Shown: positions 12,018-36,471 of the stretch, in pieces
Layout: every line of letters starts with the position of its first letter
Position numbering within the stretch: the first letter of the stretch is position 1
Assembly (NCBI GenBank): GCA_963814035.1
Contig: CAWFBH010000005.1
Location: 86,019 to 150,018, forward strand
Length of the DNA: 64,000 nucleotides
Reading direction: 5' to 3'
DNA from: an uncultured delta proteobacterium
GTDB lineage: Bacteria > Desulfobacterota > Binatia > Binatales > Binataceae
Notes under the pieces: model-generated
What the model saw: the letters and a program-made list of their open reading frames with translations, nothing else
The model's database searches: none
Told to the model about the DNA's origin: nothing
Program-made: the position numbers and the translations under genes

Positions 12018-14779
12018 TCAGGGCTGCGCGGCGACGACAGTCTCGGGTGGCGGCCGGTCTTCCAGTCGCTCGACGAGCTTTTCGCGAAGCTCGCGCTGCA
12101 ACGCGATGTCGGTGATTTTGTTGCCTTCGCGATCGCTGATGTAGAACACGTCGAGCGCCTGGTCGGCATTGGTGGTGATACGCGCGAGATGAATCCGCAT
12201 ATCCAGCTTGAATAGTGTGTAGCGTGATCGCGAACAGCAAACCGACGCGATCCTGCGTGAACACATCGATGACCGTGTACTCCTCCGAGGTGCGATTATC
12301 GATGGTCACCTCGGTGGCGACGCGGCGCAGGAATTTCTTGTCCGCGTACCTGACGTGATGCGCCGAGGCCACCAGCTCCGCGATGTCCTGCTCGCCGGTC
12401 AGCACGCGTTCAAGGTCGCGCTCGACCAGCAGCCAGCGATCTTCCTCCAGCGCAACCGCCCCGGTCGGCCCCGAATGCGAAACACGGAAAACATCGAGCG
12501 CGATGCCGGTGTTGCGGGTGGTGATGCGCGCGGAAAGGATGTTGAGATTGTTCGCCGTCAGCGCGCCCGCGATCATCGAGAACAACCCGGGACGATCGTG
12601 CGTTACCACGATGAATTCGCTGAATTCGAGGTCGGTAAAATGCCGATGGCGGGTGACCAACGGAAGCTCGCCGAGCGCGCGCATCAGCTCGAAATGCAGC
12701 GGGACATCACCGTCAGGCAAGGTTAGGAAATAGCGATCGGGCATCTCGTCGAGGAATTTCTGGAGCTCGTCCGCGGGCGCTTTGGCCTTTGCGAGTTCCT
12801 TTCGGATGTCTTCCTTAACCGCCGCCAGTCGGCGCGCGGGATCGACCGCCTCGCGATGGCCATGTTCAAGAATCTTCAGCGCGCGCATGTACAGTTCCGA
12901 GAGCAACATGTCGCGCCAGTTGTTGTAGACGTTGGGGGCGACCGCGCGCATATCGGCGAAGGTCAGCAGGTAGAGCGCCTTGAGGCGATCGATGGAGCCG
13001 ACCTCGCGCACGAATTCGCCGACTGTGGTTTCGTCGTCGATGTCGCCTTTCTGCGCGACCTGCGACATCGCCAGGTGCTCGCGCACCAGGATCACCACCA
13101 GATCGATTTCCTCGTTGTTGAGGCCGAGCCGGCGGCATACTTCGGCGGTCAGCAGCGCACCGCGTTCATGATGGTCATGGCCGTGGCCCTTGCCGATGTC
13201 ATGCAGCAGCAGCGCAAGGAACACCAGCGGTAGCGAATCGAGATCGCGAGCCACTTCGGTCAGCAGCGGATTGACTTTCTTGTATTCGCCCGCACGGAGC
13301 TTCTCGAGCTCGCGCACCGCGACCAGCGAATGACGATCGACGGTATAGATGTGGTAGAGGTCGTGGAGCACGCGCGCGTAGAGATTTCCGAATTCGGGAA
13401 TTATCGCGCCGAGCACGCCCGACCGATGCATCGCTTCCAGCGTCTCAGCGACGCGCGCGCGATTGCCGGAAAGAATCGTCATCAGCGTCTGACCGACCCG
13501 CGGGTCATTGCGCATCGTGTCGTTGTCGATCAGCGGAAGATTGTCGCGCACGGCCTGATACGCCGCGCCGGAAAGGCCGACGCCATGCGCCTGGCAATCC
13601 GCATAAATCGTCATCAGATTGAGCGGATCGCGCTTGAACAAATCCGGATCGGAAATCGCGAGCAGGTTCTGCTGAATGATGACGCCGGGGCGAATCTGCC
13701 GCGTCAGGAGGCGTCGCCCGAAACGGCCGTTGCCGCCTTCGACCACGCGCGCAATCAGCCCTTCGGAAAACCGCAGGATGGTGCTCGCGTGCTGATAGTA
13801 CGTGCGCATCAGGATCGCGCTGGCGGAAAGCGAACCTTCCGGCTTGAAGCCGAGCATCGGTGCGATGCGCTCCTGGTACTCGAAGGTGAGCTGATCAAAA
13901 TGGCGCTTGCTGAGGAAATGGAGCGAATTGCGCACCCGGAAAAGAAAGTCGCGCGCCTCCAGGACCTCATTCAGTTCCGGCGCGGTGATAATCGCGCGCT
14001 GGACCAGTTCCTCGACCGAATGGATTTTGTATTTGACCTTCGCCAGCCACAGCGCGGTGTGCAGATCGCGCAGTCCGCCTTCGCCTTCCTTCAGTTGCGG
14101 CTCCAGCAGATAAATCGAATCGCCATACTTGGCGTGGCGCTCGCGAGTTTCTTCGAGCTTGATCTGGAAAAACTTATGCTGATTGCGATTGAGAACATCG
14201 GCCACCAGCAGCGCCTGCAACTCCTCGAAGATCGCGCCGTCGCCGGCAAGGAATCGCGCATCGAGGATCGCGGTCTTCTCCTTCAGGTCGGTCGCCCGCC
14301 ATCCGGACGCATTCGCGCGCGTTGCGGATTCCATGCCCCACGATCAGGCCCGCATCCCATAGCGCATGCAGCATGATCTCGGTCACGATTTCCGCGTAGG
14401 GTCCGCGCTTGTAATCGTGGATGAAGAGCAAATCGATGTCGGAGTAGGGGTTCAACTCGGCGCGGCCATAACCACCCCGCGCCACGACGCAAAGCTTCTG
14501 ATGCAGCTTGGCGTAATGGCGGGTGTGCTCGGCGTCGGCGTAGCGGAACAGCGCACGCATCATGTCGTCGATGGCGGCGGTGTATTCGCGCACCACTTCG
14601 GTGCCCGACGCGCCGGCGAAGTGATGCTCCGCGACTTCCTCGCGAATCACTTCGAGATAGACGCGCGCGATCTTTCCGGGCGCGCGGGTAGCTTCGAACT
14701 CCAGGTAGAGTGCTTCCTCGCCGCGAGGAATGGTGTCACGGGCGGCGTGGGTCGGCGGGGTCGGGACGGCAGCGCTCAC
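12018..14779 (-). pseudogene. glnD: [protein-PII] uridylyltransferase/uridylyl-removing enzyme GlnD; reading frame broken twice (about 14295 and about 12226)
   Basis: Three colinear ORF pieces: the NTase domain (GGYGRAELNPYSDIDLLFIH) in 14174..14779, the HD domain (LLLHDIGKGHGHDHHERG) plus first ACT in 11989..14334, and the last ACT (RIHLARITTNADQALDVFYI) in 12018..12266. Both junctions are phase-consistent with a +1 base. The 14295 junction lies in a GGG run. Confidence 0.9.
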
Positions 14780-15988
14780 AGATTTCCCGCTGCCGCGTCA
14801 GAGCTCAAATAGTGAACGACCGCGGTCGCGATTCCTTGCGCGAGGATGCGTTGATACTGCGGCGACGAGAGCCGCTGCGCTTCGGAGGCGTTGGACAGGA
14901 AGCCGCATTCGACCAGCACCGCCGGCATATGCGCACCGACCAGCACGTAAAATGGTCCCATCTTCGCTCCCAGCGGATTAACTTCCAGCCCCAATTGTGT
15001 GTCCAAGTCGGTTACAGTTTGCGTGTCGATCATCCGCGCCAGCGAGGCGGCTTCATTCGCCTTATAGTTCTGGCGGAGATCGGCAAGGATGTAGTTTAAG
15101 TTGCCATCCCGCGGCGCGCTAGCTCCCGTGATGCCCGCATTCTCCATCCTCGCGAGCCGAATCGTCGCGCGATCGGTCGTGTTGTTGAGGTAGTACACCT
15201 CGATGCCGGTGGTTTCAGGGTTGGGACTCGAATTGAGATGGATGGACACGAACAGATCCGCATTCGCGAGATTCGCGCGTCGCGTCCGCTCCGGCAGCGA
15301 AATGAAGTCATCGCTATCGCGCGTCAGTTGCGTGCGCACGCCGCGTACCTTCAGCGCATCGGCGAGCCTGGCGCGAGATTTCCAGAGCGACATCTTTTTC
15401 GAGGATGCCGCTGTCCGACTGAGTCCCGGGATCATAGCCGCCATGTCCGGGATCGATCATCACGAGCTGATTGCCAGGCGGCAGCAGGGTGACCGAATTC
15501 GCAACCTCGGGCGCCGGGGCATGAATCACGACCGGCTGCACTGCCGTGGTAGTTACGCTGGAGTAGGTAGTCGTCCGGTGATGCTGCGGACGGAGCGGGG
15601 CGCTCAGGTTCGCGACCTGTCCGGAGGGCGCGAGGCGAAGGAGGATCTCGTCCTGCCGCTGCACGATTGCATAGTCACACTTGCCGATGACCTCGACCAT
15701 GATGCGCGTATGCGTCCCGTCGGGGCTGAAGACTCTCACCACACCGATCGGCGCGACCTCGCGGCCGAGCAGCGGGCGTGGCGGAATTTGCAGCGCGGTG
15801 CGATCGAGATCGATCCATAAATCGTTGCCATGCGCGCTCAGATGCATCTTCGGAGCGGGATGGTCGAGGGTCAGAGTCAGTTCGGTGACGAGGCCCGCGC
15901 GATTGAGGCTCACGGAAGTTATCGCCGCATCGGCATAGGAGGCGAGGAGCAGCAGCGCCGCGACGATAGCTGGCAAGCGCCTCATCAT
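14776..15988 (-). pseudogene. N-acetylmuramoyl-L-alanine amidase (AmiC-like, N-terminal AMIN domain); one frame break near 15370
   Basis: ORF 15314..15988 carries the signal peptide, AMIN domain and IDPGHGGYDPG. ORF 14776..15444 carries LTRDSDDFISLPERTRRANLANADLFVSIHLNS. Deleting one C in CGCC restores EISRRLADALK. Confidence 0.85.
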
Positions 15989-19155: not shown

Positions 19156-20905
19156 TTGATTTCCTATTCTCTCTTCCCGCTGGGGGTTCTGCTCGTCGTT
19201 TTACCCGGCATCTGCTGGTGGACAGCCTTGTTCCCTGACGATTTCGCTGCGGAAAAAGTGGCGTGGGGGAGCGTGCTCGGTTTCGGCGCCGCAGTGTACG
19301 TCGCCTATGTCTGTGCGTTTGCCTATTTGAGCTGGTTCTATCTGGTGTGGGCCGCGATCCTGATTGTCAGCGCCCGCAGCTTCATGCAGCGGTGGGCGCG
19401 ACTAAGGCTTCAATGGCGCGAGGTCGTGGGGCGAGCGGTAACCCTCACGAACCTTGCGATGGTTCTGGTGCTGCTGCTGGTCGTCGGGTTACAGACCGAC
19501 AGCCTGAGGAGCCAGATAGTTCCGCCGGGATGGGACTCCTCATTCCATCTTCTGCTCGCGAAAAAGATCGCGTTGAGCGGGCGCCTCATCCGCGACTGGC
19601 AGCCGTTCCAGAACGCGACGCTCAACTATCCAACCGGAAGTCATCTGCTGATCGCACTGTTCGCGCGATTCTCCGGGGTGTCCCTGCCGCGCACCTTCCA
19701 ATTGCTGATGGTGACCTTCAGCTTGCTTAGCACGCTCGCGATATATGCGCTCGCGGCGGAATATTTTGCCGCACAAATAGCCGGCTTGTACGCAGCAATC
19801 GCCTACAGCTTTTGGGCCTTTATCGGCAGCACCGACTACCTTCGCTGGGGCGGATTGCCCAATCAGCTCGGTATGCTGCTGGGGCTGGGAATATTTGGTC
19901 TGCTGATTCGCCAGGGCGAGCAGCGGAAGCGCGCGGCGCTGATGGCCGTGCTGTTCGCCTCGGTCTGTCTGACTCACCATCATGTCATGCTCACTACCGG
20001 TCTCATTTTGATCGCGCTGACAGGATTCTTCTGGGCCGCCCAGGATCCCGAAAAACGTTATCGAACTACCTTCGCCGCGCTCGCCGGAGGATCTCTAGCG
20101 GCGTCATTTTACCTGATTCCTTACGCCTTGAAGGCAAGCTCGCTAGCCAAAACCGAAGTCTTTCGCGTCTCCGACAGTTGGCCCGTCCTCGGTCCGCTGC
20201 TGGTTGGTTTTGCGCTTTTCGGAGCGACGCTCGATTACTTTCGCAAACCAGTCAGGCCGCATGTATTCCACTTTATTTCGATAACGCTGCTACTGCTGTA
20301 TGCCCTCTTCGGGTGGGTGTATTACTTTTACGAATTCGAGACGCGGGGGGTCGGCTTCGCCGCGTTCACTCCCTCGCGCTTTATCACCGATCTGGTCTAT
20401 TTCCTCAGCCTCTTTGCCGGATACGCCTTTTACCGCATCCAGCAGTATCTCGGCTGGAGGACGCCGATTATGGTCGCAATCGCTTTGTCGCTCGGGTACG
20501 TGAACTATCCGCTATGGGAACAGGTGTTCCTGCCTACCGAAGATCCCGGACGCTTCGCGGCATACGACTGGATCGAAAAAAATACGCCCGCCAACAGCAT
20601 CGTGTTGACTGGCGAATCATGGGCTTGTTACGGCACCTGGCGCCGGACGCTGGGCACCCCGATGCCGGTGTTCGGAGCCGCGCGTGCCGCCGCGCTTCAG
20701 CGTAAAGGTGAATCCGGAGTCGATGACGGACCTTGCGCGCGAGGAACTTCGCGGCACGCAATTGCTGGAGGTGTTCGGGCCTGGTGAGCATTACCCTCAA
20801 CATTATAAAGGGAGACTGCTGTGGACCAATTCGGATGGGCTGGGGAGTGACCGAAGTCTATTCGGGCCGGCCCTAATCCGCGGATTATTTGGCGGAGTTG
20901 AGTAG
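19156..20905 (+). pseudogene. large polytopic membrane protein (possibly ArnT/PMT-like glycosyltransferase fold) with soluble C-terminal domain; one frame break near 20670
   Basis: ORF 19156..20787 has more than 12 TM helices. Its tail turns Arg/Ala-rich nonsense, while ORF 20684..20905 (+1 frame) continues as protein-like VPPRFSVKVNPESMTDLAREEL. The family assignment is tentative. Confidence 0.5.
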
Positions 20906-24544: not shown

Positions 24545-25817
24545 CTAGTCGGGTAACTCATCGTCGGGCCGCAGCGCGCGAAACTGAAGCAGCAGCAACA
24601 GGTCGTATGCGATCTTGAGTACGCCGCAGCAGATGAGCGGCCATCCGAATGAGGTGACATCGAGCAGCATGCCGGCCGGAACGGGTGCCGCCGCGCTTGC
24701 GAGGCTCCGCGGCACATTGGTCACGCTCGCCGCCGCTGTGCGCTCCTCGGGCGGCACCACCGCCATCACATAGGACTGGCGGGCGGGCACGTCCATCGAC
24801 GAGAGCGCCGAGCGCAGCAACAGGAAGAGGATCGCGAGCGATGCCGTCGGCATCAGCGCGGCGAGGATAAGAAACACGCTCGCCGGGATGTGCGTATAAA
24901 CCATCGTGTTGATGCGCCCGATGCGAGCCGCCAGCCGCGCCGACACGAATTGCGAGAACGAGCCGAGCAAGCCCGCGACGAAAAAGAAGGTCCCTGCCGC
25001 CTGCACCGACAGGTTGAAGCGGCGGAACATCCATAGCGCGAGGAGCGACTGAATCGCGAAACCGCCCGCGAATGCGTCGATGCTGAACAGCGCCGACAGC
25101 CGCATCACGGTCGCGCGCGATTTCGCCAGCGGCGCGACTTTTACTGGAGTTGGCGGGGCTTCGACCGCGCGCGACAAGGGACCAATAGATTGATGCGGCG
25201 ATGAGTCCGAGGATCGCGTATACCGCGAAGCCGGAGCGCTGTGCCGCGAGCAGGTTCCATCCGAAGCGCGGCGCAAGGATCGAGGGCAGTCCGCTGGCGA
25301 GCGCGCCGAATGCGCCTCCCAACGCGCCCGCGACATTGTAGATCGCAAACATGCTGGTGAGCCCGGTCGTCGCAGTGGTCTGCGCGATCGCGGTCTGCTC
25401 CAGCGGCAGAAAAAGACTGACGTTGCCGGCGGAGGGATTCATCGTGCCCACGAATGCAACGATGGCGAGTGCCCAGAAGCTTCGCACGTAAATGAAACCG
25501 AGCCCGGTGGCGACCATCAGCACTGATGCGCCGAGCAGCATCCTGCCGGTGCCGATACGTCTGGTCGCGAATCCCGCCCATAGCGTCACCAGCGCCGAGC
25601 CGAACAACGTCGCGAACACGATCACGCCGATTTTCGCGGGGCTGAGGCCGACCGCGCTCAGATAGCTCGGCAACAGGACGCTGACGATACCGTCGCCGAT
25701 ACCCCGCAACGCGCGGGTGACGATGAGCCTGCGGCTGTCGGCGGTCGCGGTGGCGGGGAACAGGGATGGCATCGCGATTCGATTGAATGCGAGTTCTTCA
25801 AGGAGCGCCAGAGCCAT
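24545..25817 (-). pseudogene. MFS transporter; one frame break near 25178
   Basis: N-terminal 6-TM half in ORF 24558..25817 and C-terminal 6-TM half in ORF 24545..25348. The junction (IYWSL | SRAVEAPPTP) is phase-consistent with a +1 base. Confidence 0.8.
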
Positions 25818-34272: not shown

Positions 34273-34770
34273 TTATCCGAGCGGGACGGCGCTGGTGAGG
34301 ATTTCGACTTCGCCATTGCGAATCCGCACCGGATACTTGAACAGCGCGTGCGGCGGCGGACCCGCGGCGACTTGGCCATCGGAGTAGTAGACGCCGCCAT
34401 GACATGGGCACATGAAGAGGCCGGCATCCTGAAGCCAATGCACGGGGCATCCGAGATGCGTGCAGTTCATCGCGAAGGCGACGAAGTCCTCCTCGCCATT
34501 GCGGCGCAGCCACGCGGCGGTCTTCGCGGTCACGCCCGCCCATTTGAGCGGCGATGGATCGACGAAGGTGACGCGCACGGTGGTGCCGATTTGGAAGCCG
34601 TCGATTTTTCCTACCGTGCGCCAGGTTTCCGCGGTCGATCGCAGCAGCGGCCCGAGCAGAAACCCAACGACCGGGATTCCCACCAGCGCGCCGGCCAGCG
34701 CCGACACCGCGATGCTGACCTTGCCCAAAAAGGCGCGCCGCTCCGGGCTCAGTGGCGCTTCAGTCGCCAT
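34273..34770 (-). CDS. Rieske [2Fe-2S] subunit of the bc-type complex
   Basis: Tat-like ERRAFLGK, and cluster ligand boxes CTHLGCPV and CPCHGGVY. ATG at 34770 preceded by GGAGG. Confidence 0.9.
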   Translation of the reverse strand: MATEAPLSPERRAFLGKVSIAVSALAGALVGIPVVGFLLGPLLRSTAETWRTVGKIDGFQIGTTVRVTFVDPSPLKWAGVTAKTAAWLRRNGEEDFVAFAMNCTHLGCPVHWLQDAGLFMCPCHGGVYYSDGQVAAGPPPHALFKYPVRIRNGEVEILTSAVPLG

Positions 34771-34966
34771 CGACCATGCCTCCAATCCAGCTTTTCAGCG
34801 CGATCGCCATCAGCACCGCGCCTGCCGCGCAAAACAGGTACGACGTCACCAGGCCGAACAACACGAACGCGACGCCGAGGGAGAATCCCGCCGGCGCATA
34901 GGTCGGATGCGGAATCGTCTGCTCGGGCGGCAACACCCAGTCATCGCGCGATGGTTCAGATGCCAT
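34760..34966 (-). CDS. small two-TM membrane protein within the bc/caa3 cluster
   Basis: 68 aa with two hydrophobic helices, translationally coupled overlaps on both sides. No family recognised. Confidence 0.4.
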   Translation of the reverse strand: MASEPSRDDWVLPPEQTIPHPTYAPAGFSLGVAFVLFGLVTSYLFCAAGAVLMAIALKSWIGGMVDGD

Positions 34967-35905
34967 GCGTAACCCCTGCTTGAGGATGCGTTAACGGTTC
35001 GGCCTCCGGCGCGCGGTACCATCGCGCGAGGACGGCCATGATCGCGCCGAGGTAAACCAGGCCGCCGGGAACCCACATCAGCAGGCCGCCGAGCTCCTGG
35101 TCCGCTTCCGTCGTCAGGCCCCATGAATGGCGCAGCGCGTCGAGAATCCCGAGCTCATCCTGCGGATGCAGATACGCGGCGTAAGTGCCGATGGGCGCGA
35201 AGGTGATGAGGATTCCGAGCACGCCAGTTACCAGCATCGCCGCCCCGAGGTACGCGAACGCCGCGCCGTGGCTCATCCGCGAATCCTCCAGCGGGGCGAG
35301 AATCGGCCACCAAAAAATCGTCGCGGTAACAAGGAACGTCAGATGCTCGAAGATGTGCAGCGGCTCGCTCGCCAGGGTCGCATCGTAGAGGCGTGGCATA
35401 TGCCAGATCCATAGCGCGGCCATCCCGAGCGCCCACGCGAGGAGCGGATTGCGCAGCGCGCGCTCGATGGTTCCCAACACCGGAATCCGCACGATCGATA
35501 TCGCAAGCTCGCGGGGAATGCCGAAAATCAGCAGCGGCGGTACCGCGAGCACAAGCAGCATGTGTTGCAGCATGTGCGCGCTGAAGAGGTAGTCGTCGGC
35601 GAGAACATCGAGGGGTGAGATCAGCGCCAGGAGCATCACGAGGTCGCCGAGGAGGAAGAGCCCTAATTCCCAACCCCATAGACCTAACCCCCGACCCCTT
35701 CCCTTTTGGGAAGGGGTGTCAGAAGAGGAAAGCCTTCTCTTCTTTGCCTGATTCCCCTTCCCTAAAGGGAAGGGGTTAAGGGTTAGGTCGTTGGAAGGGC
35801 TGGGTTGAGGCTTCTTGCAATCACATACGCGATCGCCAACGCCACGCACCCGACGATCACCGACGGATCGAAATCCCACGCGGTTGCGAGGCGCGACGCG
35901 ATCAT
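34956..35905 (-). pseudogene. ctaG: cytochrome c oxidase assembly factor CtaG (caa3-type), interrupted by a 109-bp MITE-like repeat
   Basis: The ATGA overlap with the ctaE stop at 35902..35905 gives MIASRLATAWDFDPSVIVGCVALAIAYVIA, which runs into a TAA inside the repeat. The rest (WELGLFLLGDLVMLLALISPLDV...HMLQHMLL...) continues in another frame after the repeat. Confidence 0.7.
35681..35789. mobile_element. MITE-like hairpin repeat, copy D (perfect 10-bp terminal inverted repeats GACCTAACCC/GGGTTAGGTC), inside ctaG
   Basis: Two half-elements in inverted orientation, each with a CCCCTTCCC-N-GGGAAGGGG hairpin. Same family as 4931, 9552 and 29296. Confidence 0.7.
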
Positions 35906-36471
35906 GACGCGCCCGCTCCCCATAGATAGACGACACTGAACACCACCACCCAGACCACGTCGACGAAATGCCAGTACCATTCGACCGCGCCGAAGCCGTC
36001 GGTGGTGTGCTCGTGCAGTTTTCCCGCGCGCGCGAGGCCGAGCGTGACGCATAGCGCGACCAGCCCGATCATCACGTGCAGGCCATGGAAGCCGGTCAGC
36101 GTGAAAAATGTCGTTGCGAAGAGATTGCGACTGACAGTCACGCCGCTGGTGAGGAGGTCGTAGTACTCGCGCGCCTGGCCCAACATAAACAGCACGCCGA
36201 GCGCGATGGTGATCGATAACCACATCACCAGGCCGCGGCTGTCGGTGCGTCGCGCCGCGCGCGAAGCCATCCAGATCGTGGCGCTGCTGGAAAACAGCGC
36301 GAGGCTGAACATCCCGGTGCGCATTGGATTGAGTGCGGTCGCCGCGGTCGGTCCCGGCCCCGGGTACGCGTGGTAGTAGACGAACGCAATTATCAGCAGC
36401 AGGAAAAAATTCGTCTCCGACAGGATGAACAATCCGACGGCGATCTTGCCGCGCTCGCGAATGCTGATCAT
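35902..36471 (-). CDS. ctaE: cytochrome c oxidase subunit III
   Basis: 189 aa. FFLLLIIAFVYY, TGFHGLHVMIGL and WYWHFVDVVWVVVF. Confidence 0.9.
   Translation of the reverse strand: MISIRERGKIAVGLFILSETNFFLLLIIAFVYYHAYPGPGPTAATALNPMRTGMFSLALFSSSATIWMASRAARRTDSRGLVMWLSITIALGVLFMLGQAREYYDLLTSGVTVSRNLFATTFFTLTGFHGLHVMIGLVALCVTLGLARAGKLHEHTTDGFGAVEWYWHFVDVVWVVVFSVVYLWGAGAS

Follow-up and report, generated by a model that had tools for sequence, protein, structure and literature searches.

The TM_ECO repeats, which are the BoxC/PIT (potential intrastrand triplex) motifs of Escherichia coli and other bacteria (Holder et al., 2015; PMC4666352), have been reported to be always intergenic in E. coli. 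According to the summary in PMC10969869, Rickettsia palindromic elements (RPEs; Ogata et al., 2000) are palindromes that have become part of housekeeping genes by in-frame fusion. The repeat described here has features of both. It is a 109-nt element at positions 35681-35789 of a 64,000-nt stretch of DNA (the window), which corresponds to G000:C5:86019-150018 of a Candidatus Binataceae genome (G000; 29 contigs, 4.95 Mb, 75.6% complete), and it lies inside ctaG, where the gene encodes the loop joining the first and second transmembrane helices (TM1 and TM2) of the protein. The product of ctaG belongs to Caa3_CtaG (PF09678), a family of assembly factors for caa3-type cytochrome oxidase that is known from Bacillus subtilis. 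A further class of palindromic repeats, the repetitive extragenic palindromic (REP)/REPIN doublets, is mobilized by RAYT transposases. Comparison of the locus with nine other genomes of the same genus (G001-G009, with G002 the closest relative) indicates that the element is carried in frame within ctaG in related species, and that the break in the reading frame seen in the window is probably an artefact of assembly.

All coordinates without a contig name refer to the window, in which the locus reads on the minus strand. The ctaG start codon (ATG, 35905-35903) overlaps the TGA stop of ctaE as ATGA. From there the first frame, MIASRLATAWDFDPSVIVGCVALAIAYVIARSLNPALPTT*, passes through the conserved AWDFDPSVIVGC motif and TM1 and ends at a TAA at 35785-35783, within the repeat arm of the 109-nt element (5′ segment, 35783..35905, delimited by sequence, ORFs, and alignment). 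The first 30 codons are intact and conserved with respect to the relatives, and the gene retains its start codon, its coupling to ctaE through ATGA, and the TM1 motif. The remainder of the gene is found in another frame. An open reading frame (ORF) at 34956-35936 (326 aa) is free of stops across the entire element. Its match to Pfam Caa3_CtaG (9e-53) extends over positions 19-236 of the 237 in the profile and scores 179.5 bits, above the gathering cut-off of 27.7. The 3′ part of the gene, from TM2 (FLLGDLVMLLALISPLD) to the stop codon at 34956-34958, corresponds to the Caa3_CtaG domain (34956..35654) and is 92% identical to the G002 ortholog, whose AlphaFold2 model has a predicted local distance difference test score (pLDDT) above 90 in this region. 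Removal of 110 nt fuses the two frames. The start by ATGA overlap, the TAA in the terminal repeat, the conserved remainder in another frame, and the arithmetic of the 110-nt deletion had all been given in a preliminary description of the window, and each is reproduced here. Its title reading, a ctaG disrupted by the repeat, is the least supported of those that it offered, since in orthologs the loop here is naturally long and similar in sequence. Best supported is a second possibility that it had listed, a tolerated in-frame loop hidden by an indel: at least 20 alleles are in frame, the element in the window is itself open, and the break lies outside it.

In all nine of the other genomes, ctaG directly follows ctaE. 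The site within ctaG is empty in five (G003, G004, G006, G007, and G009), where a short loop is encoded, AC-RRDFSRAGW-FLLGDLV. The other four carry the element. In G002, G001, and G005 it occupies the identical site in the same orientation and is in frame, AC(R)(D/N)LTPNPFPLGKG...SPSLKGRG.GLGL-FLLGDLV; the copy in G008 is degenerate and comes from an obviously error-laden assembly. A search of protein collections with the read-through protein yielded clusters from JGI, ENA, NCBI, and Logan assemblies that differ from one another by more than 10%. Genome loci and protein clusters together gave 16 in-frame alleles with a full element and 4 with half an element, of 13 distinct loop lengths, whereas all 21 empty alleles share a single loop length. 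The pattern ...DLTPNPFPLGKG...SPSLKGRGWGLGL-FLLGD... is thus encoded in frame between TM1 and TM2 in at least 20 distinct Candidatus Binataceae alleles. Every change among the 13 lengths is a multiple of three, and therefore the pattern argues that selection keeps the ctaG ORF open through the element. The 20 related alleles are single uninterrupted ORFs that include TM1, which the window has in another frame. The downstream frame of the window nevertheless reads the element exactly as the relatives do, with NDLTLNPFPLGKGNQ...SQKGRGRGLGL; as far as the FLLGDLV motif, the reading is NDLTLNPFPLGKGNQAKKRRLSSSDTPSQKGRGRGLGLWGWELGL-FLLGDLV.

Two further alleles are informative in their details. In a JGI contig (3300014501, Ga0182024_10003665; L062:1300-1480), the gene caller placed the start of ctaG downstream of the element, but the gene is open from a GTG start. 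The first hairpin of its element contains a nested insertion of ~70 nt, a hairpin repeat of a different type (CCCTCTCC...GGAGAGGG), and the frame is kept. In GCA_009712145.1 (VFSW01000194.1; L060:1262-1560), a 92%-identical ctaG has a TTA-to-TGA change that creates an in-frame stop in the arm nearer the 3′ end of the mRNA. This gene is possibly a real split or truncated allele.

The element consists of two hairpins, CCCCTTCCC-N4-GGGAAGGGG, at 35695-35716 and 35754-35775. Each has a G-rich tail on its outward side, so that the ends of the element form the terminal repeats GACCTAACCC...GGGTTAGGTC. The arms measure 47 nt and are 83% complementary, and the chance expectation for the hairpin pattern is 0.00 per shuffle. 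The unit nearer the 5′ end of the mRNA (35754..35789) comprises GACCTAACCCTTAA and the hairpin CCCCTTCCC-TTTA-GGGAAGGGG, codes for DLTLNPFPLGKG in the downstream frame, and is 94-97% identical to its counterpart in four related species. A spacer coding for NQAKKRRLSSSD (35718..35753), which varies in length and sequence among species, separates it from the unit nearer the 3′ end (35681..35717). The latter is made up of the hairpin CCCCTTCCC-AAAA-GGGAAGGGG, TCG, and the G-rich third segment GGGGTTAGGTC; it codes for TPSQKGRGRGLGL, with 89-97% identity among species. The palindrome exceeds 109 nt, as degenerate outer tails at 35655-35680 and 35790-35815 are predicted to pair as well. The former is a degenerate second copy of the G-rich tail (35655..35680) that codes for WGWELGL, and similar duplicated tails are found in P0002, P0004, P0006, P0011, P0012, and G002. 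A 181-nt stretch of the mRNA is predicted to fold at -101.5 kcal/mol (z = -8.1). As a separate observation, the tails of the units can be telomere-like heptamer runs, (GGGGTTA)n, of variable copy number (G000:C2:43160-43205 and several ctaG alleles). This variation suggests slippage and would explain why WG.GL motifs are duplicated in the loops of some CtaG proteins.

The preliminary description had also assigned the element to a genomic repeat family, and this is correct: 58-74 hairpin units occur in G000, either solo at gene ends or as inverted pairs with variable spacers, and the family is present in all ten genomes of the genus. Its consensus is GAGACCTAACCCCTnn-CCCCTTCC(C/CC)-loop-(G)GGGAAGGGG, or the complement ending ...GGGGAAGGGG-TTA-GGGGTTAGGTCTC. 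By eye, the units follow the architecture of the 23 E. coli sequences of PMC4666352 Table 1, namely CCCCTTCC(C)-N4-(G)GGAAGGGG-TTA/TCG-GGGGTTAGG, and 8 of 10 positions of the third segment are compatible with G.G or T.A triads against the purine run (GGGGAAGGGG / GGGGTTAGG). Judged by this architecture, the arms are BoxC/PIT triplex-motif-type units, with the triplex itself putative. Rfam returned only sub-threshold matches of the element to generic hairpins (miRNA precursors). The term MITE-like (miniature inverted-repeat transposable element), used for the element earlier, fits its terminal inverted repeats. It does not fit the BoxC/PIT architecture or the lack of a target-site duplication at the flanks (CCATA / GTTGG). 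No transposase was found between repeat units, where DUF559 is the sole gene bracketed. Relative to the empty alleles, about 18-27 nt of the loop (RRDFSRAGW) have given way to the element, which is not a clean interruption. An origin as a RAYT/REPIN element was rejected, as no Y1_Tnp (PF01797) was found in the 75.6%-complete G000; across the genus, Y1_Tnp matched at 20-34 bits in five of ten genomes, with four short matches just above the 23-bit cut-off and two that fell short of it, all to part of the profile. An autonomous insertion sequence at G000:C25:47045-48307 was likewise rejected, the interval containing ordinary host genes and two solo units.

The ctaG copy departs from a purely intergenic distribution by lying inside an ORF, and in relatives other copies form the ends of ORFs. 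The same open frame (...SPSLKGRG.GLGL) contributes three other ORF pieces there (G002:C7:274232-274357, G003:C11:40218-40361, G002:C10:66021-66113, and G003:C2:1393226-1393288; L111, L112, L114, and L116): a C-terminal extension of a NuoM-like protein, a C-terminal extension of an amidohydrolase-like protein, and an N terminus that precedes a twin-arginine signal in two species, with its start codon in the spacer. In G000 no other convincing internal genic copy was found, the ORFs that span units being Arg-rich off-frame artefacts or upstream regions. Two genes for DUF559 (Vsr-like) nucleases (G000:C2:193221-193535 and 195335-195649) are bracketed by inverted units of the ctaG-element family. 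The two loci (G000:C2:193179-193635 and 195293-195749) are copies within a 2.1-kb segmental duplication, and their units have the G-rich tails facing the gene, the reverse of the ctaG pair. By coordinates, DUF559 genes also adjoin units in G002:C1:410913-411575, G005:C11:327273-328533, and G001:C155. The nuclease is therefore a candidate for the partner enzyme that brings in the element, the adjacency being a correlation.

Where the window differs from the in-frame alleles is a short zone just upstream of the element in the mRNA sense. The frame switch is confined to 35790-35825, a degenerate outer copy of the repeat tail that in alignments codes for ...SLNP/PSPSN.... Here the window is a net 1 nt short of being in frame; the deficit is 4 nt relative to G002 and 1 nt relative to GCA_009712145.1. 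The error load of the assembly was gauged from positions 1-48378 of the window, which are syntenic with G002:C2. Within these 48 kb, G000 has six further isolated 1-nt indels that split four genes, each intact in G002 and three of them named through Pfam (all but the 580-aa ORF): glnD (GlnD uridylyltransferase, 985 aa; split twice, near 12222 and 14293), an Amidase_3 gene (411 aa; near 15366), a 580-aa ORF (near 20670 and 20838), and an MFS transporter gene (434 aa; near 25176). On both sides of these indels, protein identity to G002 is about 86%-99%. With ctaG included, G000 thus has seven frameshifts in 48 kb compared with at most one candidate in G002, which fits the low completeness of a 29-contig genome. 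On this base rate, the ctaG frameshift is probably a residual long-read indel artefact. The named close relatives are metagenome-assembled genomes (MAGs) of "Candidatus Binataceae" from Microflora Danica, a collection of Nanopore-only assemblies that received a single round of Medaka polishing against indel errors (PMC12313526).

A number of observations weigh against an artefact. The Nanopore-only status is that of the named relatives. No independent assembly of the strain was found, either by an exact-protein look-up with CtaE or when metagenome contigs were scanned with a gapped DNA pattern spanning the break. The break zone differs from G002 by a 3-nt and a 1-nt gap, and it is too diverged from both G002 and GCA_009712145.1 for a single homopolymer slip, or the missing base, to be placed. 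A conserved Cys codon after TM1 is missing from the window. Moreover, ctaG has lost a base, whereas most of the other frameshifts in G000 are extra bases. Finally, real disruptions of ctaG seem to occur in this clade, because the 92%-identical gene of GCA_009712145.1 has its TGA inside the element-coded loop.

The same observations bear on the alternative that the frameshift is real, in which ctaG would be a recent pseudogene or encode a product without TM1, and the oxidase would be assembled through residual activity or by a CtaG paralog. This is unlikely, although far from negligible. The assembled sequence is, after all, out of frame, the Cys after TM1 is gone as well, a close relative has a stop in the equivalent loop, and triplex-motif repeats are reported to destabilize flanking DNA (PMC4666352). 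Yet both halves of ctaG are fully conserved, with start codon and TM1 motif intact; the rest of the operon is undamaged; and the frame is kept by 20 related alleles across their 13 loop lengths. The six other frameshifts in four genes over 48 kb also speak for the assembly as the source. As to a substitute, a second ctaG, which the preliminary description had proposed to look for, does exist (G000:C12:131135-131773), and no Cox11-type assembly factor was found in the 75.6%-complete G000. The paralog is, however, only 30% identical and belongs to a different oxidase cluster. It accompanies the main ctaG in every member of the genus and is therefore no evidence of replacement.

Improbable is a split gene, in which TM1 with the loop and TM2-TM7 would be made as two polypeptides by termination and re-initiation in the element and would assemble in the membrane. 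The allele of GCA_009712145.1 lends itself to such an arrangement: its TGA is followed a few bases on by GTT TTG and preceded by the purine-rich, Shine-Dalgarno-like stretch GGGGGUGAGGUG in the repeat arm, and the gene caller began a 240-aa product at that TTG. In the window, in contrast, the first ATG, GTG, or TTG codons that the downstream frame offers after the TAA are the GTG/ATG at 35639/35636. These codons, put forward earlier as a restart site, are poorly suited to the purpose, lying six residues into TM2 with no Shine-Dalgarno-like sequence upstream. The relatives have no conserved two-gene arrangement, and 20 alleles are single ORFs. Very improbable is programmed -1 ribosomal frameshifting stimulated by the hairpin to join the frames: the shift needed is indeed -1 and the -101.5 kcal/mol structure lies directly downstream of the break, but 35790-35830 contains no X XXY YYZ slippery heptamer, the closest relatives share the hairpin and need no shift, and the break zone is not conserved. 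That the element is an assembly chimera and not truly within ctaG can hardly be entertained, since, although repeats can cause misassembly and a short-read contig of a relative (L061) ends exactly at the element, it occupies the identical site in independent short-read and long-read assemblies of several projects (NCBI, JGI, ENA).

An assembly indel in a gene that tolerates the repeat therefore remains the preferred reading, and its consequences for the protein can be outlined. An inverted pair of BoxC/PIT-type units, each a hairpin with a G-rich tail, lies in the DNA encoding the TM1-TM2 loop, and its stop-free frame would be translated as a basic, Gly/Pro-rich, disordered extension of about 40-55 residues. 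CtaG would tolerate this extension, and selection would hold the whole gene open through the element. The base lacking just upstream of the element, most likely an assembly indel and not a mutation, would then merely make TM1 look out of frame. An AlphaFold2 model of the G002 ortholog, built from 61 aligned sequences, is consistent with this outline (mean pLDDT 87.6). TM1 and TM2 span residues 14-32 and 77-97, and the 44 element-coded residues between them (33-76) are predicted as coil with a pLDDT of about 50. The inserts are net basic (K+R 5-14 versus D+E 1-5), as is the ancestral loop, CRRDFSRAGW. Because the loop and inserts are basic, the positive-inside rule suggests that the loop is probably cytoplasmic. 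The insert would then extend into the cytoplasm, opposite the side on which copper is presumably handled.

The history of the site was followed on a maximum-likelihood tree of the C-terminal core of CtaG, from which the loop was excluded. The deepest lineages have empty sites. Element-bearing alleles are scattered over the tree, with at least 4-5 changes forced by well-supported branches and 12 by parsimony, and a single origin in one clade was rejected by the approximately unbiased (AU) test (p = 7e-5). Such a distribution would result from repeated occupation of the site or from transfer of loop alleles between lineages by recombination. A recent insertion, also considered in the preliminary description, is at odds with the presence of the element in species that differ at 23%-38% of ctaG third codon positions; what stands of that suggestion is that occupancy of the site has changed repeatedly. 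Between species, identity is 89%-100% for the arms, with most of the differences in the hairpin loops, but only 62%-77% for the third codon positions of ctaG. A neutral loop that is passively inherited does not explain this identity, whereas re-insertion, gene conversion from other copies, or structural selection would explain it. One might go further and regard the TM1-TM2 loop of ctaG as a homing hot spot for a still-active BoxC/triplex-type repeat, possibly spread by DUF559, with the arms kept by re-insertion or gene conversion or by selection on DNA or RNA structure (for example, in pacing cta translation). This proposal is doubtful, although arm conservation, the AU test, the duplicated tails, and the nested in-frame insertion all fit it.

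Around ctaG, the respiratory operon is otherwise regular. The stops of ctaC, ctaD, and ctaE overlap the starts of the genes that follow, down to ctaG, and the gene order is the same in relatives. The upstream neighbor, ctaE (35902..36471, minus strand), encodes cytochrome c oxidase subunit III (189 aa; Pfam COX3, 5.6e-28) with 97% identity to its G002 ortholog. On the other side, a 68-aa membrane ORF (34760..34966, minus strand) overlaps the ctaG stop ahead of a Rieske gene, and a 68-aa gene is called there in two relatives. This ORF shows that the operon continues intact. A Pfam search gave no match for it; the hydrophobic product may be a small subunit linking the genes of the oxidase and the bc-type complex. 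The second oxidase cluster (G000:C12:129635-133273) is shared by every genome of the genus. Besides the Caa3_CtaG paralog, it includes a long gene resembling that for subunit III and another resembling that for subunit IV. Elsewhere in G000, a DnaE2-like gene (G000:C2:~161100-161340) contains an inserted composite palindrome; a stop codon immediately precedes WFCTLE, and the frame changes ahead of SLRLGL. It is another case of a repeat combined with a frameshift in this assembly.

For annotation, these results mean that ctaG in the window should not be called a pseudogene killed by a repeat on the basis of the present assembly. The same caution extends to the other "broken" genes of the G000 MAG (glnD, the amidase, and the MFS transporter), in which gene calls are frameshift-prone. 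Beyond annotation, the locus is a clear, genus-wide case of a BoxC/triplex-motif-type repeat translated within a respiratory membrane protein. Alleles with an empty site (21), half an element (4), or a full element (16) form a natural series for studying the tolerance of a polytopic membrane protein to a foreign loop. The series bears also on how BoxC-type repeats move and why their stems stay conserved, and the recurring adjacency of DUF559 nucleases offers a testable candidate for a partner enzyme of the repeat.

Compared with known systems, the host protein itself is a typical Caa3_CtaG, with a strong Pfam match, a place after ctaE in a ctaC-D-E-G operon, and a multi-helix membrane fold. 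It differs in that the TM1-TM2 loop is longer by 6-54 repeat-derived residues in part of the genus and that the ORF is interrupted in the window assembly. Like REP/REPIN sequences, the units are short GC-rich palindromes, mostly extragenic, that occur solo or as inverted doublets forming a long hairpin, but they have an extra G-rich third segment, and no RAYT (Y1_Tnp) was found in G000. In structure, the units parallel BoxC/PIT/TM_ECO. Both have a 9-10-nt pyrimidine run, a 3-5-nt loop, a complementary purine run, a 3-nt loop, and a G-rich mirror segment, and types A and B of TM_ECO have the same 3-nt loops as the units here, TTA or TCG; a CCG loop also belongs to this architecture. Both are multicopy, with loops less conserved than stems, inverted tandem pairs with a variable spacer, and unusually variable flanks. 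The core is CCCCTTCCC here and CCCTCTCCC in TM_ECO, the units here also bracket DUF559 genes, and the ctaG pair lies inside an ORF and is translated in relatives, whereas TM_ECO was reported as always intergenic (PMC4666352). With RPEs, the family shares the form of palindromes of ~100-150 nt, placed in frame in unrelated housekeeping genes, that add a fold-compatible surface or loop peptide and whose copies are both shared between and polymorphic among related species. An open frame fused to the host ORF in a tolerated loop, as in RPEs, is found in the relatives, and the element of the window is open in the downstream frame. There is, however, no sequence relation. The ctaG copy is the only internal genic one found in G000, the others being intergenic or at gene ends, whereas for RPEs PMC10969869 gives 44 integrations into genes in one genome; and the host here is a free-living soil bacterium, unlike the obligate intracellular host of RPEs. 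By analogy, then, the situation is functionally RPE-like, carried by an unrelated repeat of the BoxC/triplex-motif type in a loop of a membrane protein.

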